Of a stretch of DNA of 64,000 nucleotides, positions 7,434 through 64,000 are shown one piece after another. The DNA is taken from positions 91-64,090 of the forward strand of contig JAEZJZ010000030.1 of assembly GCA_023436245.1 (NCBI GenBank). The letters run 5' to 3'. Position numbers and translations under genes: made by a program. Position 1 is the stretch's first letter. Each line of letters opens with the position of its first letter. The DNA comes from Bacillota bacterium (GTDB lineage: Bacteria; Bacillota; UBA994; UBA5500). The notes under the pieces were generated by a model. The model was given only the letters and a program-made list of their open reading frames with translations. It was not told the DNA's origin and searched no databases.

Positions 7434-8681
7434 ATGAACATGGAGCAAGCCTATTACAGCGGCAATCGTCAGCGTCTTTATCAGGGCATGGAGGACAACT
7501 CGCTGTTGGTATTGTTTGCGGGACACGCACCACGACAAAGCGGTGACCAGATGTATACCTTTTTCTGCAACCGCAACTTCCTCTACGCCACCGGCTGCAA
7601 TGAAGAGGGCATAGCCCTGCTGGCCGAGAAGCGCGGGGGCAAGGTCACCGAGACACTCTACTTGCAGCGCCCTGACCCAATGGCAGAGCGCTGGTCGGGC
7701 CGACGGCTGAAGGCGGAAGAAGCGATAGCCATCTCCGGCATTTCTCACATCTCCTACCTCGATGCATTTCGGCGCGAGTTCCATACTAGAGCCAGCGGCA
7801 ATGATGTCCGGCAGATCTACCTCGATCTGACCAAACTGACGGCGGAGGAACCGGCGAACGAGGAACACCGCTTCGCGCACTATTGCCAGCGGGAATATCC
7901 GGCTCTGCCCTTGCAGAACATCCATTTGCGCTTCAGCCAGCTACGACTGATTAAGCAGCCGTGCGAAATCTCCGCCATGCGGTCATCCGTGCGCATCACC
8001 AAAGAGGCGATTCTGGCGATGATGCGAGCCTCCCGCCCGGGGATGTGGGAGTACCAATATAAGGCCATCTTTGATCACGTGCTGACGGACAACGGCGTGC
8101 TGGAACCAGGCTTTCAGCCGATCATCAGCGCTGGTCCAAACAACTTCTGCATCCACTACTATGCGTACAGCGGGCAGGCGCAGGATGGGGATCTGATCCT
8201 GAACGATGTCGGCGCCCGCTGCCAGGGCATGGTCAATGATGTCTCCCGCGCTTGGCCTTGCAATGGCAAGTTCACGGAGAGACAGCGTCTGCTCTATGAA
8301 TGTGCTTTGCGCACATCAGATCACATGTTCTCCATCATCAAACCGGGCATGCTGCACGAAGATGTGGATCGCCTGGCGCGCGAGTACAACTATCAGCTGC
8401 TGCACCAACTTGGCCTAGTCGAAAGCTATGAGCAGATCGGAAGGCTGGTCTGGCACGGCGGAGCGCACCATGTCGGCTTGGATGTTCACGACGACGTCGT
8501 GCGCGTCGGCCATCTACAGCCCGGCATGATCTTCTGCGTGGACATCGGCATCTATTGTGAGGACTGGGGCATCGGTTTCCGGCTGGAGGACAACTGCCTG
8601 ATCACGGAAGACGGCTGCGAAAACCTGTCGCGGGACATCCCCAGAACAATCGAAGAGATTGAGGCCACTATGGCTAGATAG
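7434..8681 (+). CDS. pepP: Xaa-Pro aminopeptidase (M24B family)
   Basis: AAGGAGG RBS then ATG at 7434; creatinase/prolidase N-domain followed by the pita-bread fold with His/Asp/Glu metal ligands (HGGAHHVGLDVHD). Confidence 0.8.
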   Translation: MNMEQAYYSGNRQRLYQGMEDNSLLVLFAGHAPRQSGDQMYTFFCNRNFLYATGCNEEGIALLAEKRGGKVTETLYLQRPDPMAERWSGRRLKAEEAIAISGISHISYLDAFRREFHTRASGNDVRQIYLDLTKLTAEEPANEEHRFAHYCQREYPALPLQNIHLRFSQLRLIKQPCEISAMRSSVRITKEAILAMMRASRPGMWEYQYKAIFDHVLTDNGVLEPGFQPIISAGPNNFCIHYYAYSGQAQDGDLILNDVGARCQGMVNDVSRAWPCNGKFTERQRLLYECALRTSDHMFSIIKPGMLHEDVDRLAREYNYQLLHQLGLVESYEQIGRLVWHGGAHHVGLDVHDDVVRVGHLQPGMIFCVDIGIYCEDWGIGFRLEDNCLITEDGCENLSRDIPRTIEEIEATMAR

Positions 8682-13136: not shown

Positions 13137-13901
13137 TCAGGGCTTAGCTACCCGGTTAGTCAGTGCGCCTAGGCCCTCGATCTCAATGGTCACCTCATCG
13201 CCGACCTGCATCGGACCGATCCCCGAGGGGGTGCCGGTAAGGATCACATCGCCGGGATAGAGCGTCATCACCTGCGAGACGAAGCTAACCATGTAGGGAA
13301 TCGAGAAGATAACATCTGAAGTACGACCGTCCTGCTTCAACTCGCCGTTCAGGAAAGTCCTAAGAGCTAGATCGCCGGCGTCTACTCCGGTGACGATGCT
13401 GGGCCCGAGGGGGCAAAAGGTGTCAAACGACTTGGCTCTGCTCCACTGAATGTCCTTGGACTGCAGGTCACGAGCGGTGACGTCGTTGGCGATGGTGTAG
13501 CCGAAGATGTATTGCGCGGCGTCCGCTTCTGCAACCTGATGGCACTTCCTCCCGATCACGATGGCAAACTCGCCTTCGTAATCGAGCTGGCCAACGGTCG
13601 GCCAGTAGACGATGTCACCGCCGGGCGGAAGCAATGCAGTGGTCGGTTTGAGAAAGATCACCGGCTCCGCCGGTAACTTCATGCCGAGTTCCAAGGCGTG
13701 CTTACGGTAGTTCAAACCGACGCAGACGACCTTGCTCGGCTGGCAGGGGGTAAGTAACTGGACCTCGCTCAAGGGATACGTTTGCTCGGTCGGCTGGTGC
13801 TCGCCGAAGATGTCGCCCTGAAGCACGGCGACCTGGTCATCTGACAGCAGCCCGAAGTGGGTCTGGCCATTCACCGCAAAGCGGACATAATGGTTCGTCA
13901 T
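13137..13901 (-). CDS. fumarylacetoacetate hydrolase (FAH) family protein (HpcE/2-keto-4-pentenoate hydratase-like)
   Basis: MTNHYVRFAVNGQ...; the ATG at 13899-13901 is preceded by GGAGGAG at 8 nt; the track ORF is 78 aa longer only because the upstream tandem repeat has no stop in this frame. Confidence 0.8.
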   Translation of the reverse strand: MTNHYVRFAVNGQTHFGLLSDDQVAVLQGDIFGEHQPTEQTYPLSEVQLLTPCQPSKVVCVGLNYRKHALELGMKLPAEPVIFLKPTTALLPPGGDIVYWPTVGQLDYEGEFAIVIGRKCHQVAEADAAQYIFGYTIANDVTARDLQSKDIQWSRAKSFDTFCPLGPSIVTGVDAGDLALRTFLNGELKQDGRTSDVIFSIPYMVSFVSQVMTLYPGDVILTGTPSGIGPMQVGDEVTIEIEGLGALTNRVAKP

Positions 13902-13909
13902 ACAATCAA

Positions 13910-14107
13910 CTCCTCCAGCAGTCTGCAAGACTGCGATCTCAATAAAGCGATTCTTGCTCGTCAAGAATCGGCTTGTACCTCCAGCAGTCTGCAAGACTGC
14001 GATCTCAATAAAGTGATTCTTGCTTGCCCAGAATCGGCTTGTACCTCCAGCAGTCTGCAAGACTGCGATCTCAATAAAGCGATTCTTGCTCGTCAAGAAT
14101 CGGCTTG
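13910..14107. repeat. 3 tandem copies of a 66-bp unit immediately 5' of the FAH gene
   Basis: Unit cctccagcagtctgcaagactgcgatctcaataaagcgattcttgctcgtcaagaatcggcttgta. Copies at 13910-13975, 13976-14041 (diverged in one arm) and 14042-14107. Each unit holds two hairpins (GATTCTTG-n5-CAAGAATC and GCAGTCT-tgc-AGACTGC) and the SD-like CCTCCAGCAG. Confidence 0.85.
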
Positions 14108-14141
14108 TACTAGAGGTTTGTCGCAAAGCGGTCATTTTGTA

Positions 14142-55770: not shown

Positions 55771-57130
55771 CTAAATCTTGAACTTGGCCACTAGGGAACT
55801 GAGTCGCTCGGCCATCTCTGCCTGGGCTTGAGCCGTCTTCGACATCTCGTCCAAGGCTTGGGTCGTTTCCGAGACATTATTGCTGATCTCCTGGGAGGAG
55901 GCAGTGGATTGCTCAACTGCTGCCGCCACGCCTTCGATGGCGATGTTCACCTCAGTGACAGAGGATGATATCTGATCAGCGACCTCCGCAAACTCCTCAA
56001 CCAGAGTCTTCACCGCACGCGCATCAGATGCGTATTGATCGCCTGTCTGCACGAGCATCTCATAGTCAGGAGTGACCTTGTCATCGATGAACTGCAGAAT
56101 CTGCCCCGCATTATTCATCAAGCGGTCAACCGTCGCTTTTACCTGTGCAATCACGCGCTGAATACCGCTCGCCGTTTCGGCTGAGTTCTGGGCCAGCTTT
56201 CGCACTTCCTCGGCGACCACGGCAAATCCACGGCCTTGTTCCCCTGCCCGAGCCGCTTCGATCGCGGCGTTCAGCGCCAGCAGGTTGGTCTGCGACGCAA
56301 TGCTGGTGATCACGTCGGCCATAGCAGCTATCTCCTCGACCACTTTCGCCTCCTCGATAGCCTGCCTGATACCGATCTGCTTGTCCTGATACACTTGCAG
56401 CGCTGTCTCTTTGGAGGCTTGCGCATGTTGCATCATTTGGGAAGCACGCTGTTCGATCTCGCCGGCAGTAGCGCGTCCATCGACAGTCCGAGCCGCCAAT
56501 TGCTTAGCCAGATTGAGTATGCCCGCCCCGGCCGCGGCGACCTCTTCCGTGGCCGCGCTATTCTCCTCCATGCCTGCGGCGATCTGCAGGACAGCGTCAT
56601 CAATGTGCTCGCTCTGTGCGCTCGCTTCTTGCACGGTTGCGGATAGTTGCGGCCCGCGCCAGTCCCCCAATTTCATCACGGCGGCGAGCATACTCCACCG
56701 CGACCGAACCAGTGAAGTCCCCATTGGCAGTGGTGGATTCAAACTGGTGCGAAACTGTCGTAATCGGTCTGGCGATTCCTCGACCAATGAGGACCGTCAC
56801 TGCGGCAAGAATGAGTAGCGCCGCAACGGCAACGATCATTAACGTACTCAGGGTGTGCCTCACCCCTGCCAGTACCTCGGCGGTCGGGACCACGACGGCA
56901 AAAGCCCAAGGGGTCGCTGCTCTACCGATCTGCAGCGGGACAATTACCTTGTGCACTTCCTTGTCGAGACTAGATGATTGGTCTAGGGTGGTGTACGACT
57001 CACCAGCCAAGATGGCAAGGTCAATGCCCACCGCTCCAACCACGCGAGAACCCACCTGGATCGAGTGCCCTGGTATCTTGCGGCTACGAGAGCCTTCCCT
57101 GATGTGGAAACACATTACATCAGACGATGC
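55771..57130 (-). pseudogene. methyl-accepting chemotaxis protein, frameshifted and N-terminally truncated (partial Cache, TM, HAMP, MA domains)
   Basis: Track ORF 55771-56787 carries the MA signalling domain; ORF 56600-57667 (part below about 57130) carries the Cache C-terminus, TM helix and HAMP (DEIGGLA); frames join at a C5 run near 56645-56667; the region upstream of about 57130 is antisense to the AKR gene. Confidence 0.5.
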
Positions 57131-57208
57131 AGGAGCCAACGACTCCACTATTGAATGTTCTAGTAACAACTGCGGGCGGCGGCGCCCGCAAGAGCAGGGA
57201 GGGTCATC

Positions 57209-58360
57209 ATGAACTATCGAGTGCTGGGCAGGACGGGACTCAGGGTCAGTGAGATCAGCATGGGCAGCGAAGGCTTTGAGGGAGCGGGCCTTGATGCGGT
57301 GAAGGAAATGGTGGATACAGCCATTGCCGGCGGCATCAACTACTTCGACTGCTACAACTCCAACCCGGTAATGCGCGACAATCTGGGCAAGGCGTTGCTC
57401 GGTCGGAGGGACCAGGTAATCATCCAGGGACATATTTGCTCCGCCTTCAAAGACGGGCAATACTATCGCACGCGCGAGATGGACGTGGTGAGAGGAGCGT
57501 TCATGGATCTGCTGACCCGCCTCCAGACCGACTATATCGATGTAGGCATGATTCACTATGTGGACACCGAAGAAGACTACGATGCGGTGATGAGCGGGCC
57601 GATCATCGCCTACGCTCAGGAACTGAAGGCCAAGGGTGCAATTCGACACATAGGCATGAGTTCGCATAACCCCACCGTGGCGCTGCGCGCGGCCGAATCG
57701 GGCCTGATTGACGTGCTCATGTTCAGCCTTAACCCGGCCTACGATCTGCTCCCGGCTAATGATGACGTCTATGCTTTGTTTGAGGAGAAGACATACGAAA
57801 GCGATGCTCTAGGCGGTATCGACCCGGAGCGAAATCATCTCTACCGCACCTGCGAAACACTGGGCGTGGCGATCACCGTGATGAAAAGCTTTGCAGCGGG
57901 CGCCCTACTGTCAGAAGCAAAATCGCCATTCGCCACGGCGCTGACAACCACACAATGCCTGCACTATGCCTTGAATCGCCCAGGGGTGGCGACGGTGCTG
58001 GTGGGGGCGCGGGATTGCACCGAGATCGAGGCTGCGGTCGCGTATGCCGAGGCCAGCCCTGCGGAAAAAGACTATTCCCTTGCCTTGAGCCAGGCACCGA
58101 AGCATTCCTTCAGCGGCATGTGCATGTACTGCGGACACTGCGCGCCTTGCACCGCCGGCATCGACATCGCGCTGGTCAACAAGTATCTCGATCTGGCGCA
58201 GGCGCAGCCAGAACTGCCCGAAACAGTGCGCGAGCACTATCGGGTGCTGCCGGCCAAAGCCGCCGACTGTGTGGCTTGCGGCATCTGCGAAACGAACTGC
58301 CCCTTCGGCGTGCGCATCGTGGAACGCATGCTGGAAGCTAGAAAAGTGTTCGGAGAGTGA
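57209..58360 (+). CDS. aldo/keto reductase fused to a C-terminal 2x[4Fe-4S] ferredoxin-like domain
   Basis: MNYRVLGRTGLRVSEISMG AKR N-terminus; C-terminal CMYCGHCAPC...CVACGICETNCP. Confidence 0.8.
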   Translation: MNYRVLGRTGLRVSEISMGSEGFEGAGLDAVKEMVDTAIAGGINYFDCYNSNPVMRDNLGKALLGRRDQVIIQGHICSAFKDGQYYRTREMDVVRGAFMDLLTRLQTDYIDVGMIHYVDTEEDYDAVMSGPIIAYAQELKAKGAIRHIGMSSHNPTVALRAAESGLIDVLMFSLNPAYDLLPANDDVYALFEEKTYESDALGGIDPERNHLYRTCETLGVAITVMKSFAAGALLSEAKSPFATALTTTQCLHYALNRPGVATVLVGARDCTEIEAAVAYAEASPAEKDYSLALSQAPKHSFSGMCMYCGHCAPCTAGIDIALVNKYLDLAQAQPELPETVREHYRVLPAKAADCVACGICETNCPFGVRIVERMLEARKVFGE

Positions 58361-58425
58361 AGCCAATCCTGCCCCTGAGACGTCTATCCGGTATAGGGGT
58401 CGAGGAAATGAAACAGGGTAGCAGG
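58021..58425. repeat. left copy of a ~405-bp direct duplication (3' end of AKR gene, intergenic region, first 6 codons of the downstream gene)
   Basis: About 95% identical to 61264-61666; here the downstream gene start is truncated (MKQGSRDA*). Confidence 0.85.
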
Positions 58426-58706
58426 GATGCCTGACCATGGCCAGGCGTCTTCAATTCCAGCAAAAAATCCCATGCGCTTGCGAACTCTCTGGCCCCCTCG
58501 CGTAGTTACCGGTTCTTGGGCTATTCAAAACCCTCTAGAGCGCTTTTCTGTCGCTCCCCTACGCCGCTTCCCCTATCCCATCGCACCGCGCTCTCCGGGC
58601 CGCGTAGGAATCCGCTATGGCCTTCTCATTTCCACGGCGGCAGTTCCCCATGCGCAAGAAATGGCGACCACATCGCCCTGATCGCCTTAACGAGCCCTCT
58701 GAGGCG

Positions 58707-59513
58707 CTACCGCCTTTCAGGAGGTGCCTCAGCCAGGTTGCTACCATCTAGACCCATTTTGAACAGCCTACCAGCGGGCCCAACCCGAAAGTATACTTCA
58801 TCGTTATGAATGTGAAGGTCGTAAGCAACCCCATCGTATAGCTCCGTCATTTCGGATCCATCTGGCGCCATACGGAAGATATGCCCACCCTTGCCGGGGA
58901 GAATGAGAAACACCTTGCCTTGACCTAGCTCATACTCAGAAACGATGCCCGGATGAATGATGTCCACTGGCTGGGTCGTTTTGGCCTGAACTCTCTGGAG
59001 TGCGTAATCCAAAGAGACATTGACGAAATAGACCCAGAGTCCGTCTGTCTTCACTCTAATGCAGGATGCGGAAGAGACCAGTTTGGCTTCCGGCTTTCCT
59101 AACTCAAGTGCATACAGAAGGTGATCATTGCTGCTCACGTAATACAAATAGTTGTCGATCGCAACCAGACTCTCTGGATGCTCTGATGTAACGGTTTCCG
59201 CCGTACCGATGCGATCAGATAGACCGACCCGAACGGTGCTTTGCATGAAGCAATCGTAGTAGTACACCATTCCCAGGGAGACGTGAAGTATACGTGCGTT
59301 ACCGTTTGTAAGGATCCTCTTCTCCTTCGTATGAGCGTTTATTGCCGTTAGGACACCTCGATTACCTTTATCTGCGTACACTTTCCAGTCTCCTACACGG
59401 AAACTTGCGAAATCCACTTCTTGCTCCTTGGATCGTAGCCTGGGTTCAAGAAGCAAAAATGCCAGCACTGCTGCCAATGTCAAAAGCAAGATGAGCTTGG
59501 TGCTTCTCCGCAC
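58707..59513 (-). CDS. secreted/membrane-anchored beta-propeller-like protein (DUF5050-like)
   Basis: N-terminal TM/signal, YYV/YYY-rich repeats; within the inserted segment. Confidence 0.4.
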   Translation of the reverse strand: MRRSTKLILLLTLAAVLAFLLLEPRLRSKEQEVDFASFRVGDWKVYADKGNRGVLTAINAHTKEKRILTNGNARILHVSLGMVYYYDCFMQSTVRVGLSDRIGTAETVTSEHPESLVAIDNYLYYVSSNDHLLYALELGKPEAKLVSSASCIRVKTDGLWVYFVNVSLDYALQRVQAKTTQPVDIIHPGIVSEYELGQGKVFLILPGKGGHIFRMAPDGSEMTELYDGVAYDLHIHNDEVYFRVGPAGRLFKMGLDGSNLAEAPPERR

Positions 59514-59519
59514 GAGAGC

Positions 59520-60452
59520 TCATTTGGGGATGGTGAGGGCGTTGCTTCCCCGTAGCCAATTGTGGTGAACGGTGTTGTACGTCACAGACAGACCAAAGCC
59601 AACAAACTGAGCAGATGAGATGGACGCCGATGCGGATGGTGTAACGGTCTTCCAGTTGTGCTCAAAGTTGGTCTTTACGCGATTTGTGGCCGTACTTCCT
59701 TTGTTGATCCAGCCTGCAATGCGAACCATATCGGTCTTGTACCTGTACATCAAGGGGTTCCACTCATCATGAAGATTGTAGATCTTACCTTGCCAAAAAT
59801 CGTCCCGCAGAGTAACAGCGTCTCCTCGAGTGTTCCCTGCGGTACCGTCTGTAAAGCCAGTTTCGTTTCCGTTCTGATCCCATGTCTGGCACTCCATTGA
59901 TCTCCATCGCCAGCCATTATCTGATTCAAGCTGTGCTGATACTAGGTCGTATGTATCCCAAAAAACGTCATAGTTATACTGTGGTGTCCAGTCCCAGTAC
60001 GCGTAATAGTAGATTGAACCATCTACATCCATTACCGCGTCGGGATATACAGTAAGCTCACTAGACATGGACATGGGCGAGACAACGGAGGATGTGGATT
60101 CCTCACCGAATACGAATGATTCGCCATCGTACTTCCCGCATTCAACAAGTCCTTCGGACTTCAGGTAGGCCTTGATCTCGGCCAAGCATTCCTTGAGCGT
60201 TCTCTGCGCATTGAGCTCAGCTGCTTGTTCGTCGAGGGTGACATTGTTCATTTCGGCGGCAAGCCGCATTTCACCAATTCTTTGCAGATGTCTGTCACTG
60301 ATATCAGCAACGTTTGCGTTGATCCTTACCTGCCGGTCGGTTAGGGGTTGCTGAACAACCTGTGTGTTTTGCCCTTGTAGCGCCACCACAGGGTTTGACC
60401 CCAATGATACTGCGATAATTAGGGCCATCGTTAATGCCAATACCTTTTTCAC
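59520..60452 (-). CDS. secreted hypothetical protein, Trp/Tyr-rich
   Basis: Signal peptide MKKVLALTMALIIAVSLG; no recognisable family. Confidence 0.4.
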   Translation of the reverse strand: MKKVLALTMALIIAVSLGSNPVVALQGQNTQVVQQPLTDRQVRINANVADISDRHLQRIGEMRLAAEMNNVTLDEQAAELNAQRTLKECLAEIKAYLKSEGLVECGKYDGESFVFGEESTSSVVSPMSMSSELTVYPDAVMDVDGSIYYYAYWDWTPQYNYDVFWDTYDLVSAQLESDNGWRWRSMECQTWDQNGNETGFTDGTAGNTRGDAVTLRDDFWQGKIYNLHDEWNPLMYRYKTDMVRIAGWINKGSTATNRVKTNFEHNWKTVTPSASASISSAQFVGFGLSVTYNTVHHNWLRGSNALTIPK

Positions 60453-60593
60453 CTGTATTCCCTCCGTATTCTTACCATCAGACGTTACGGCCGCATTATG
60501 TCCCAGCGCTCAAGTCACAGTAGCATCCCATTCCTCCTCGCGTTCTGGAATTCGATCGACAATAGTTCTCCTCAGCACGGGCTCATATATACA

Positions 60594-60646
60594 GACACCT
60601 ATAAGACGATTCTGCAACGCCTTTTCTTGCAGCTTATGGATATGTC
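60594..60646. repeat. 53-bp direct repeat, copy 1 (ACACCTATAAGACGATTCTGCAACGCCTTTTCTTGC-n7-GGATATGTCT)
   Basis: Second copy at 63091-63143; the weaker similarity continues for about 40 nt. Confidence 0.8.
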
Positions 60647-60722
60647 TTTTGAAACCGAAGCTTTAATCTCAAGAAGGGGCGCCTCTCACAAAGAGAGACG
60701 CCCACTTAGCTCTCCCAGTTCC

Positions 60723-61251
60723 TTACAGCCTTATATTCGCCGCCGCGTTATCCCGGAACAGCGTTCCTTCCCGAATGTATCTTCTGACCATGGCCACCGA
60801 TCGGAGTCCAGTCTGCGTCATGATCGAATGCTCTGACTTGCCCGCAGCCGCAGCACTGGTAGCCAGGCCGCTCCGGAGCGAGTGACCGGAATAGTTGGCC
60901 GAGTCGAGCCCTGCAGCCTCGGCAGCTCGCTTGACGATCCTAGCCACGGAACGATCGGTGAGCCGACCTGGTAGCAGCTAGCCATGGCGGTCCACTGGCC
61001 GGAAGATGGATCCCTCGGTAATGCCGGATACCTGCAGCCAGGCCTTGTAGCTTCGGACCGGGCAAGTCCCCCCTGTCCACCGTATGGAGCTCGCCCTCGC
61101 CCTCCTGGTCAGTCTTGCTCCTTTTTGCCAAGACCTGCAGCCCTTCTTCTACCTCGGCCACGTCCTCGATGTTCAAGCCGACGAGCTCCGATCGGCGAAA
61201 CGCCCCAGCAAAGCCAAGAAGCAGCAGCGTATGATCACGCATGCCGAGCAA
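60723..61251 (-). pseudogene. tyrosine recombinase/phage integrase, C-terminal catalytic region only, at least 2 frameshifts
   Basis: 60723-60947: GHSLRSGLATSAAAAG...VAMVRRYIREG (HxxR and catalytic Tyr); 60940-61251: RDHTLLLLGFAGAFRRSELVGLNIEDV...RSKTDQEGEGE (box I Arg) then out of frame; N-terminal domains absent. Confidence 0.6.
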
Positions 61252-61261
61252 GTTATCCGGC

Positions 61262-61601
61262 AGAGATCGAGGCTGCCGTCACGTATGCCAAGGCCAGCCC
61301 TGCGGAAATGGACTGTTCCCTTGCCTTGAGCCAGGCACCGAAGCATTCCTTCAGCGGCATGTGCATGTACTGCGGACACTGCGCGCCTTGCACCGCCAGC
61401 ATCGACATCGCGCTGGTCAACAAGTATCTGGATTTGGCGCAGGCGCAGCCAGAACTGCCCGAGACGGTGCGCGAGCACTATCGGGTGCTGCCGGCCAAAG
61501 CCGCCGACTGTGTGGCCTGCGGTATCTGCGAAACGAACTGCCCCTTCGGCGTGCGCATCGTGGAACGCATGCAGGAAGCTAAAAAAGTATTCGGCCAGTG
61601 A
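61262..61601 (+). pseudogene. orphan 3' fragment of an AKR-ferredoxin gene (right copy of the duplication)
   Basis: ...EIEAAVTYAKASPAEMDCSLALSQAPKHSFSGMCMYCGHCAPC... is identical in register to the AKR C-terminus, with no 5' part. Confidence 0.7.
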
Positions 61602-61666
61602 AGCCAATCCTACCCCCGGGACGTCTACCTGATGTAGGGGGTGAGGAAATGAGACAGGGTAGCAGG
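61264..61666. repeat. right copy of the ~405-bp direct duplication
   Basis: See 58021-58425. Confidence 0.85.
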
Positions 61667-62287
61667 AGAATAATCTGGTTGGTCATCCTAGCTTTGCTGG
61701 TTGTACTCGCGCTCTGCGTCCAAGACGGCAGGATTCCGGGCTTTCGCAAGGTTAAGCTGAACGAGCCCGCGTGGTTGTCTGAGGCGATGGATGCAGAGGA
61801 GATCTACGAGCATCTCAAGCAGTCATCGGCCGAGATTCCGAGGAAATACTCGGCGGAGGATGGTGTGGCTGACGGACATGTCGTGGTCCTCTGGGGCAAA
61901 ATGCAGTCGGACCCCCGGCTGGCAGACGCCTTCCTCGCTGCGTGCCAAAAGGGCCACAGAGCTGAGATGAAGTTCGTGAGATTCGGGTACGAAGGTGACG
62001 TTTACATCACCAGTCTCGTCTTTGATGGCGAAACCTATTTCGGGGTCAGGGACAGATCAAGGGATTTCTACGCTGGCTTCAGCCTGGATCAGGATTACTA
62101 TCAGGAGTTCGCTTTCCCCTACCTGCATGTCTTTGAGACCGACAATGGACGATCGGTGTACCTATCTGATGATCCCGAGTTGACCCTGGAACGACTAGAG
62201 GCAAAGATAAACGGTCAAGGTTCGGACGACCCCGTGAAGTATCAACGGCTATATGGCACCTACAAACAGCTGAAGATCGTGAGGTAA
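61649..62287 (+). CDS. hypothetical membrane-anchored protein
   Basis: MRQGSRRIIWLVILALLVVLALC N-terminal TM; its first 6 codons are duplicated at 58389. Confidence 0.5.
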   Translation: MRQGSRRIIWLVILALLVVLALCVQDGRIPGFRKVKLNEPAWLSEAMDAEEIYEHLKQSSAEIPRKYSAEDGVADGHVVVLWGKMQSDPRLADAFLAACQKGHRAEMKFVRFGYEGDVYITSLVFDGETYFGVRDRSRDFYAGFSLDQDYYQEFAFPYLHVFETDNGRSVYLSDDPELTLERLEAKINGQGSDDPVKYQRLYGTYKQLKIVR

Positions 62288-62326
62288 CCAGCAAACAGGG
62301 CTGTCGCAGAAGCCTGTCGGCAAGCG

Positions 62327-62480
62327 GGCGCCATGCATGGCGCCCCTACGATAGCTCAGGCATTTCCCGCTCGCCCGTAAGGGTCGCATGCATGCGACCC
62401 GCGTTTGCGCCACATCGCAACCTATGGACAGCATTTGCGCACTCAAAGGCAAGAGAGACGTCAGCTGTCGTCTCTCTTGC
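62327..62480. repeat. cluster of three palindromic (REP-like) elements
   Basis: GGGCGCCATGCATGGCGCCC (62327-62346, followed by CTAC), GGGTCGCATGCATGCGACCC (62381-62400), GGCAAGAGAGACG-tcagctg-CGTCTCTCTTGCC (62446-62478). Confidence 0.8.
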
Positions 62481-62674
62481 CCTGTTCGTGGGGTCCTATT
62501 GCAGAAGCCCGTCTCATTTGCACTAGTATGAGACGTAATGGCTACGCCCGTTCCACCAGCAGAGCGGTGCCTATGCCGCCGCCGACGCACAAACTCACTG
62601 TTCCAAGTTTGTTGCTGTCTGAAGCGTTAGCAAAGCAAGCCCAAACTGAAGGTTACCGATTACCAGAAGCGTTA

Positions 62675-63061
62675 CTAGAAGAGATTAGTGCTCTCTTCGT
62701 GTTCGGACTCTCCGTTCGTTTGCCTGTTCAGAGATCTCCGTTTCGTCTGCAATGCTGCAATAATCATCCCAAAACCAATCACAATCCAGATCAGATACTT
62801 TGCGATCATGTAGGGTCCTCCACCCATACTGTCAAAAGGCGCTGGACCCTGGATAATCCACAAGCGATACTCGCCAATTGACAGATAATGGGACAGGATC
62901 GCGGGCCAAGAGAGAACCACCAGTCCGATTCCAAAGAGCAGCAAGGCTAGAAAGTCACTTTTCCAGGTCGGCAGAAATCTCCTAAACCAGCTCAAGATAA
63001 TCATCAGCCCTACCAAGACGACAACAATCACCCCACTACCTCCTCGCACTTCAACACTCAA
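62675..63061 (-). CDS. small membrane protein, hypothetical
   Basis: 128 aa, 3-4 TM helices, lower GC. Confidence 0.4.
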   Translation of the reverse strand: MSVEVRGGSGVIVVVLVGLMIILSWFRRFLPTWKSDFLALLLFGIGLVVLSWPAILSHYLSIGEYRLWIIQGPAPFDSMGGGPYMIAKYLIWIVIGFGMIIAALQTKRRSLNRQTNGESEHEESTNLF

Positions 63062-63090
63062 ATGTAGTCCCGTTCCGAACTACTACCTCG

Positions 63091-63143
63091 ACACCTATAA
63101 GACGATTCTGCAACGCCTTTTCTTGCGGCCAGTGGATATGTCT
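63091..63143. repeat. 53-bp direct repeat, copy 2
   Basis: See 60594-60646. Confidence 0.8.
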
Positions 63144-63183
63144 GCAACTGAAGTGCAATCTCAAGTGTTAAGCGGCTCGCTGA

Positions 63184-63900
63184 GTGAGCCACTTTTTGAT
63201 GCTCTTTGCCGAGATATTTGGTCTGTCCAAACGTACATTTGGGCAAGCTAGAGCAGCAAAGATGACCGCGCTAATTGACGGGAGGGAAAAAGAAAGAAGG
63301 CGCCATGGGATCGCACCCGCGCCTTCGTTCCTCAACATGATCATTCCACACCACTATGGAATAACCATCCATGAATATTGTCGCCGCGGGAAAGAGAATT
63401 TATACCCCGAAATCGTTGGGTGTAGATCCTGCGTTTATGGTGGTCGGTTGCGCCGCCATGGTCACTACGAACGGAACGCACTCTCTCTCGGTGCTTCCTA
63501 TCGCTTATTCATCCCCCGGTACCTCTGCCCAGTCTGCGGTCGCACCTGTTCTATTCTCCCTTCTTTCTTGTTGCCCAGGTTTCAGTACGTCTTGGCAGTC
63601 ATCCACCTGCTGCTCCGCTGCTATACCTTGACGGAGTGCAGTATGGAAAGCCTAGCTCAGTTCTTGCGCGGGTGCGGCCAAGCCGCCTTCAGCTACCAAC
63701 TGCTCAGCTTCTATCGCAAACGGCTGCTTCTGAATCGAGGCAGCATCACCGCAACTTTGGCCGAGCTACGAGTTGAGTTGCCAAGTGGCGGCGAGGACTG
63801 GGTCAGGGCGTGGGCCTCAGCGATTGCCACACATGAGCAGATCAGTTCCTTTCATCTAAACCACCACCGAATCTGGAGACGGTCCTTCCTGTCATCCTGA
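63184..63900 (+). CDS. hypothetical protein with two CxxC pairs (zinc-ribbon), possibly transposon-associated (DUF6431-like)
   Basis: CRSCVYGGRLRRHGHYERN...CPVCGRTC pattern. Confidence 0.3.
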   Translation: MSHFLMLFAEIFGLSKRTFGQARAAKMTALIDGREKERRRHGIAPAPSFLNMIIPHHYGITIHEYCRRGKENLYPEIVGCRSCVYGGRLRRHGHYERNALSLGASYRLFIPRYLCPVCGRTCSILPSFLLPRFQYVLAVIHLLLRCYTLTECSMESLAQFLRGCGQAAFSYQLLSFYRKRLLLNRGSITATLAELRVELPSGGEDWVRAWASAIATHEQISSFHLNHHRIWRRSFLSS

Positions 63901-64000
63901 ATCACCATGCCCTGCCCCAAGGCACCAGTCTGCCCGTCGCGCTGTTTTTGGCCATCTGAACCTGTATTGACCGTGCTGTTTGACCAACTATCTCTGGCCG

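Follow-up and report, generated by a model that had tools for sequence, protein, structure and literature searches.

At the 3' end of icd in Escherichia coli K-12 the prophage e14 (as well as phage 21) leaves its target gene intact, with the prophage supplying the last 165 bp of icd, a 165-bp orphan 3' fragment (icdC) at the far end and a tyrosine integrase aboard, the intact intE and xisE lying well inside the 15-kb element. In integration of the SSV1 type the phage attachment site (attP) lies inside the integrase gene, which is split on integration. In conjugation experiments with E. coli, circles that bore a partial homologous fragment integrated by single crossovers and left the insert flanked by duplications of 109–950 bp (PMC3240628), and in naturally competent bacteria homology-facilitated illegitimate recombination of linear DNA is known, for which a deletion of recipient DNA is predicted (PMC3240628). 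Here we describe a locus that has likenesses to all of these. It lies on a metagenomic scaffold of a Bacillota bacterium (contig JAEZJZ010000030.1), of which a stretch of 64,000 nt was analysed (the window). A gene for an aldo-keto reductase (AKR) with a 4Fe-4S ferredoxin domain is followed there by 2.84 kb of heterologous DNA, enclosed between two copies of a 405-bp segment of the AKR 3' end and what follows it, and the remains of a tyrosine recombinase gene (int) adjoin the right copy. An earlier note, made from the sequence alone, had read the locus as an island inserted site-specifically by this integrase, which then decayed. The observation itself is confirmed and its interpretation partly supported: the explanation that we favour, and to which we give about an even chance of being correct, is that of a real, immobile insertion-duplication scar produced by general recombination and not by the integrase found within it.

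The empty site is preserved in relatives. In a set of 5.8 billion proteins just three relatives of the protein encoded downstream of the AKR were found, two of them on long contigs (L057 from JGI and L058 from Logan), both of which show the order 383-aa AKR, 78 bp, 202-aa gene, thiolase, CoA-transferase and lysine-fermentation cluster. The earlier note had suggested looking for such a site and had reasoned that the same arrangement in related genomes would point to an ancient duplication; in L057 and L058 the insert is lacking. By blastn, window positions 57129–58425 correspond to L057 8693–9988 and 61260–62298 to L057 9581–10619, and compared to the empty site the window thus has 2.84 kb extra and represents L057 9581–9988 twice. 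The AKR that stands to the left of the insert is of the same length as those of L057 and L058. In the reference genome collection the closest AKR has 59% identity (metagenome-assembled genomes of Ruminococcaceae, Massiliimalia, and Acutalibacter), and these matches are too remote for a comparison of synteny; the source is accordingly taken to be an uncultured, Clostridia-like bacterium.

The two copies are in direct orientation, with a start-to-start distance of 3241 bp. The direct repeat reported in the earlier note is real, although its identity had been put at ~95% and our recount gives ~93% over 404 nt (27–28 substitutions plus two 1-nt indels that compensate each other), the first 300 nt being gap-free and 96% identical. 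Its content is also as had been noted, namely the AKR 3' end, the intergenic spacer (47 nt inside each copy) and the first 6 codons of the next gene, with the AKR part amounting to the last 112 codons plus the stop rather than ~115 codons. The longest run of identity between the copies (82 nt) falls on the coding sequence of the Cys-rich ferredoxin motif, a stretch that the relatives with the empty site have conserved as well. At the left copy the AKR is intact and the next gene is cut short, a truncation read from the sequence and from its alignment with the right copy and the relatives, and at the right copy the AKR is an orphan piece and the next gene is intact, just as the earlier note had described.

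The insert meets the left copy at a joint that we call J1 and the right copy at a second one, J2, located at 61263. J2 connects codon ~131 of int to codon 272 of the AKR and reads ...GTTATCCGGCAG/AGATCGAGG... in the window. Regarding its parents, the integrase DNA of contig L060 (a JGI contig with the closest relative of the fragment, see below) continues ...CGGCAG/CGTGGCC..., and the AKR parent reads ...TTGCACCG/AGATCGAGG...; with L060 standing in for int and the left copy for the AKR, the overlap amounts to 1 nt (a shared G). J2 is an illegitimate joint within two genes; it is no att site with an integrase gene beside it. The junction cuts int, which does not form a separate uninterrupted unit beside an att site. 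The same joint is found on a 598-bp contig of another ENA assembly (L066, equivalent to window 61042–61639) with 99% identity, and neither J1 nor J2 is inside sequence common to both copies. Since the site is empty in relatives and J2 is present in an independent assembly, the insert must be considered real.

The recombinase is dead, and the claim of the earlier note that the island is immobile holds. The note had pointed to a C-terminal piece with at least two frameshifts beside the right repeat; we find two frameshifts within the stretch GEGEL / PYGGQ / TCPVR plus one in-frame TAG, and the conserved His of the GH(R/K)S motif is replaced by Leu in comparison with the sequences of relatives. 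What the note had not mentioned is that the gene also lacks its first ~130 codons and is cut exactly at the repeat boundary. There is therefore no complete two-domain open reading frame (ORF) with its catalytic residues. Residues 1–130 left no trace at 58426–58800 or elsewhere in the 64 kb, as judged by tblastn with nine relatives as queries (eight of 309–315 aa and the 204-aa protein P0006). The integrase ORF does end exactly at an att-like repeat, as in SSV1, but the other half, to be expected at the opposite end of the insert, is absent there and throughout the window, and a split integrase of the SSV type was ruled out.

The fragment belongs to a large family of ~315-aa two-domain enzymes (PF02899 and PF00589) without an extra N-terminal domain, common on plasmids and also present in viral contigs. 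In the two plasmid contexts that we inspected the recombinase was a lone gene, in one case directly after an AbrB/PIN pair (toxin-antitoxin-like). The closest relative is P0006 (70% amino acid and 82–85% nucleotide identity), itself a degenerate 204-aa gene, which lies on two JGI contigs (L060 and L061) at ~210 bp from a homologue of a small membrane-protein gene of the window (gene i, see below), in divergent orientation. No AKR fragment accompanies it in L060 or L061, which are two short contigs. This link between the closest int and gene i argues that the int fragment belongs to resident debris and not to a self-contained element.

Judged by its composition and by the matches of its parts, the insert is a mosaic in which three or more unrelated pieces come together. 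This is based on the third-position GC content (GC3) of the two cargo genes (0.54–0.55), on an orphan of a short repeated motif (D3) located between these genes and the integrase fragment, and on the GC content of the latter (0.61). The two genes for secreted proteins had been described in the earlier note as of lower GC, and their composition is indeed foreign, with GC 0.49–0.50 in a genome of ~58% GC and the above GC3 against 0.66–0.75 in neighbouring genes. The first of them codes for a DUF5050 protein (gene GC 0.50, GC3 0.535) with a predicted N-terminal membrane anchor or signal, and a terminator scan found a terminator-like hairpin after it (58663–58686, minus strand). The second codes for a 310-aa secreted protein of a very small family, as only five relatives were found, none of them among viral contigs, and it had no match in Pfam, NCBIfam or PHROGs. 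A structure model of poor quality (pLDDT 58) matched no fold in the PDB significantly; a helical hairpin plus a beta-sandwich are tentatively predicted. One further contig (L062) has a full homologue of this gene together with a ~155-bp fragment of it at 7528–7682. Functions of excision (excisionase), regulation, replication or transfer were not detected in the insert with Pfam, NCBIfam, or PHROGs.

Between the two copies there are 9.5 synonymous and 8.5 non-synonymous differences, which correspond to a synonymous divergence (dS) of 0.137 and a ratio of non-synonymous to synonymous divergence (dN/dS) of 0.24; for the AKR against L057 the values are 0.46 and 0.07. A dN/dS of ~0.5 would be expected had the orphan drifted freely since a duplication in situ, and the lower value suggests that the copies diverged partly within working genes of different lineages. 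Moreover, within the last 25 nt of the repeat there are 4–5 linked sites at which the left copy agrees with L057 and the right copy with L058 and with a third related contig (L059). These sequence patterns suggest that the two copies came from different lineages. On the other hand, L066 differs from the right copy of the window at six positions and in all six (6/6) carries the base of the left copy, which indicates that the copies exchange sequence by conversion, here in a sister population, and with gene conversion their divergence is no clock. We also considered that the lineage of origin might be more distant for the right copy and the 202-aa gene than for the left flank, as hinted by identities to L057 of 83% vs. 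89%. This idea was dropped, given that the synonymous distance of the 202-aa gene (0.52) is like that of the AKR (0.46), so that the gene is just a fast-evolving one.

We favour general recombination because a segment is duplicated around heterologous DNA, the joints are arbitrary and intragenic, the recombinase is dead and decapitated, and the copies look allelic. The ancestral locus would have consisted of the AKR, a 78-bp spacer, the 202-aa gene and the thiolase, as still seen in relatives. The incoming molecule would already have borne a 405-bp piece of a related AKR 3' end, spacer and gene start, flanked by a broken recombinase gene on one side and by the two low-GC secreted-protein genes on the other, and would have recombined with the chromosome via this 405-bp homology. 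Most likely, this molecule would have been a circle that entered by one crossover of the Campbell type; equivalently, it may have been linear, with homology at one end and an illegitimate joint at the other. Either route would put the 2.84 kb between direct copies and preserve a complete AKR to the left and a complete downstream gene to the right. The int fragment, the 70-bp transposon end and gene i would be older mobile-element debris reshuffled in the same hot spot, and the repeat copies have later exchanged sequence by gene conversion. Of this account, the empty site, the joints, the mosaic make-up and the dead integrase are observed, and the homologous crossover and the form of the incoming DNA, circular or linear, are deduced.

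The resemblance to Campbell-type insertion-duplication lies in the direct duplication of a chromosomal segment around heterologous DNA, in its arbitrary boundaries and in its length, as 405 bp falls within the 109–950 bp of the E. coli experiments (PMC3240628). It differs from these in being a natural event with a donor that we infer, and in having copies that are 7% diverged and were later subject to gene conversion. With homology-facilitated illegitimate recombination it shares one homologous anchor and one nearly homology-free joint (1 nt, J2), but here there is a duplication where that process predicts a deletion.

Several points weigh against such a scar of general recombination. We found no donor molecule, no second genome with J1 alone and no contig with the junction order of a circle, and the circular or linear intermediate is hypothetical. 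DNA uptake by this organism is only putative. An integrase fragment lying against a repeat that restores the 3' end of a gene is what insertion by an integrase predicts, and would otherwise have to be partly a coincidence. One Campbell event alone does not yield the flipped and split arrangement of int and gene i, for which at least one more rearrangement is required. Finally, the argument for different lineages rests on few sites, which are further blurred by gene conversion.

Precisely this position of the recombinase gene, directly against one repeat, leads to an alternative that stays close to the earlier interpretation, namely that an element with the AKR 3' end and spacer in its attP was inserted at the 3' end of the AKR gene by its own recombinase, as e14 and phage 21 at icd, and later lost the 5' half of int and part of the element-borne AKR copy by deletion before the frameshifts accumulated. 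The layout of e14 is reproduced by the empty site together with the restored AKR and its orphan 3' fragment, the copies seem to be of different lineages, as an element-borne copy predicts, and both plasmids and viral contigs are known to have members of the recombinase family. We nevertheless consider it unlikely. The joint itself destroys int (with the 1-nt overlap), so that an extra deletion from int to the repeat is required, and the insert, a mosaic with an orphaned transposon end among its parts, has no xis, regulator or other gene of an element. In the closest int lineage the linked gene is gene i and not an AKR, and the position of gene i beyond the right repeat is left unexplained. The family is one of 315-aa two-domain recombinases often found alone beside toxin-antitoxin genes on plasmids. 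Compared to e14, where the duplication is of 165 bp and intragenic, the one described here is 2.5 times longer and runs through the stop and the spacer into the next gene, and in place of intact intE and xisE well inside the prophage there is a recombinase cut by the joint and no xis. All this leaves site-specific integration by the resident integrase with a weak case, the N-terminal half of the enzyme being nowhere in the window. In its most specific form, a decayed e14-like element of uncultured Clostridia with a simple two-domain tyrosine recombinase and a replacement cassette of at least 405 bp in its attP, we find it quite improbable, and we are just as doubtful that a cassette of this length would restore, besides the AKR 3' end, the spacer and the beginning of the gene that follows. 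If an e14-like origin were true, the AKR-ferredoxin gene would be a new target for a recombinase family borne by plasmids and phages. In that case it would have the longest target-restoring att region known to us.

The distribution of mobile-element debris on both sides of the right copy could also be explained by a larger island, a rather unlikely reading in which all DNA from 58426 to past the end of the window would be foreign and rearranged, with codon 7 of the 202-aa gene as the point of interruption. A 1.33-kb piece (61263–62595), made up of the AKR 3' end, the 202-aa gene and the thiolase stub, would then be a host-like fragment lodged between int and gene i of a resident element, and the true continuation of the locus would be further on. 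In fact int and gene i, ~210 bp apart in L060 and L061, flank exactly this piece in the window; both of its ends are arbitrary intragenic cuts (at codon 272 of the AKR and ~50 bases before the end of the thiolase gene); on either side of it there are low-GC DNA and transposon ends; and the thiolase and lysine-fermentation cluster is missing from the whole window. Nevertheless, int and gene i are in flipped relative orientation, and the order seen is not what a simple insertion between them would give. The similar synonymous divergence of the AKR and the 202-aa gene from L057 (see above) gives no sign of a different ancestry, and the presumed right end would be located beyond the window.

Both joints look illegitimate, and the copies are each other's closest relatives (93% identity vs. 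89–91% to L057), as would fit an origin in situ, by which an unequal exchange between sister chromosomes or a template switch would have duplicated the 405 bp in tandem, trapping 2.8 kb of filler at the junction, and the copies would have diverged in place. This origin seems to us very improbable, given that the dN/dS of 0.24 between the copies is under the expectation for one drifting copy, that the linked sites near the 3' end of the repeat agree with one outgroup lineage in the left copy and with another in the right copy, and that the composition of the filler is foreign. A stitching together of the locus versions of two strains by the assembler, to be thought of with a metagenomic scaffold and with related contigs (L059 and L066) that begin or end inside the repeat, is hardly credible, as neither joint is in shared sequence able to mislead an assembler, the window has 0 Ns, and the contig with J2 from a separate assembly has variants of its own; the insert is not an assembly artefact.

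The scar of general recombination that we favour would be an ordinary kind of event at a new place, which implies no new type of system and opens no new question. It could be a small natural case in which an insertion-duplication took place between homologous segments that had diverged, and gene conversion came after it. It also invites caution, since an integrase fragment, long repeats of a gene 3' end and low-GC cargo mimic a textbook integrative element, and here, going by the joints, the recombinase would itself be a casualty of the event. The features of the locus are collected in Table 1.

Table 1. Features of the AKR locus and its right-hand surroundings (positions in the window; J1 and J3, joints; D3, short repeated motif).
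Feature	Position	Strand	Evidence or remark
AKR/4Fe-4S ferredoxin-domain gene, intact, 383 aa	57209–58360	+	Pfam PF00248 and Fer4 families
Left repeat copy	58022–58425		AKR codons 272–383 and stop, spacer, 6 codons of next gene
Truncated start of downstream gene, MKQGSRDA then stop, cut after codon 6 by J1 (58425/58426)	58408–58434	+	
Non-coding stretch, 281 bp, GC 0.59	58426–58706		No match in any fetched locus
Cargo gene 1, DUF5050 (LRP1-like beta-propeller) protein	58707–59513	-	Pfam PF16472, E=8e-21
Cargo gene 2, 310-aa signal-peptide protein, GC 0.49	59520–60452	-	
D3 copy 1, orphan of 54–70 bp, probable solo transposon end	60592–60661	+	93% identical to 63090–63143
Dead tyrosine recombinase fragment, residues ~131–315 of a 315-aa family	60723–61263	-	Pfam PF00589, translations, tblastn
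Right repeat copy	61263–61666		Orphan AKR 3' fragment, spacer, start of intact downstream gene
Intact downstream gene, membrane-anchored protein, 212 aa from ATG	61649–62287	+	202 aa if from TTG 61679
Thiolase 3' stub, synteny break J3 at 62595/62596	62532–62595	-	blastn to L058 and L059; junction alignment
Gene i, 128-aa membrane protein, GC 0.49	62675–63061	-	Homologue adjoins closest integrase relative in L060 and L061
D3 copy 2 (63088–63154) and DUF6431 ORF (63184–63900)	63088–63900	+	Pfam PF20020

Gene i is separated from the int fragment in the window by the right repeat, the 202-aa gene and the thiolase stub, and its orientation relative to int is flipped with respect to L060 and L061. 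A scan of JGI metagenomes returned no relatives of gene i. We tried to obtain the observed order from an AKR–gene–thiolase segment and a gene i–integrase segment by a single inversion or a single insertion, and neither leads to it; at least two events are needed. In L060 and L061, which come from two JGI samples, a unit made up of a 91-aa gene, gene i and the degenerate integrase gene is identical. The DNA upstream of this unit differs (an HD-domain gene in one case and a sigma-70 fragment in the other), indicating that the unit or its flank is variable there too.

On the 5' side of gene i, the similarity of the window to L060 tapers off just before 63088, where the second D3 copy starts. D3 is probably a transposon end, by analogy with plasmids of Geobacillus in which DUF6431 is the first gene of units consisting of DUF6431, an IS481-like DDE gene and an AAA-ATPase gene, with repeated motifs at both ends. 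The DUF6431 ORF of the window is 36–44% identical to their first gene, and D3 is just upstream of the ORF, where these units have their end repeats; in contrast to them, only the first gene is within the window. Positions 63088–64000 are thus probably the left end of a DUF6431/DDE/AAA-ATPase transposon that leaves the window. No exact match of D3 was found in JGI metagenomes or viral contigs, and exact look-ups of the DUF6431 ORF (with two possible starts) and of the 80-aa orphan product, aimed at DNA past window position 64000, gave no match. A structured RNA was considered for D3 as well and discarded, with no Rfam match in 57000–64000 and inconsistent folds of the two copies. The window is base-for-base identical to scaffold_267 of LEMO22-1_SAMN17062689 in ENA (ERZ28596075) up to position 63219, and the ENA copy stops there, inside the putative transposon end, as expected for a multi-copy repeat.

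Compared with the relatives, the whole neighbourhood is rearranged, as read from the alignments, since the thiolase cluster is lost, the chemoreceptor gene has two deletions and 2.7 kb of the relatives' DNA is missing. Except for the ~60-bp thiolase stub, the thiolase, CoA-transferase and lysine-fermentation cluster of the relatives is absent from the whole 64-kb window. The site may be a hot spot that gathers and reshuffles mobile-element debris, as seen in what is left of the integrase and of a transposon end, in the truncation of the chemoreceptor gene and in the loss of the thiolase cluster. Upstream of the AKR, the methyl-accepting chemotaxis gene (55771–57128) is degraded with respect to the 706-aa dCache receptor of L057 and L058: it has a deletion of 80 bp at 56650/56651, and ~1.08 kb (the sensor domain) are replaced by 112 bp. 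Around window position ~55685, ~2.7 kb of L057 are missing that code for SHOCT, flavodoxin_2, a hydrolase, and an acetyltransferase; L058 has the same genes without the hydrolase. Further away, at 13912–14110, three tandem copies of a 66-bp unit (94–100% identical) are found inside an ORF of the minus strand (13137–14135).

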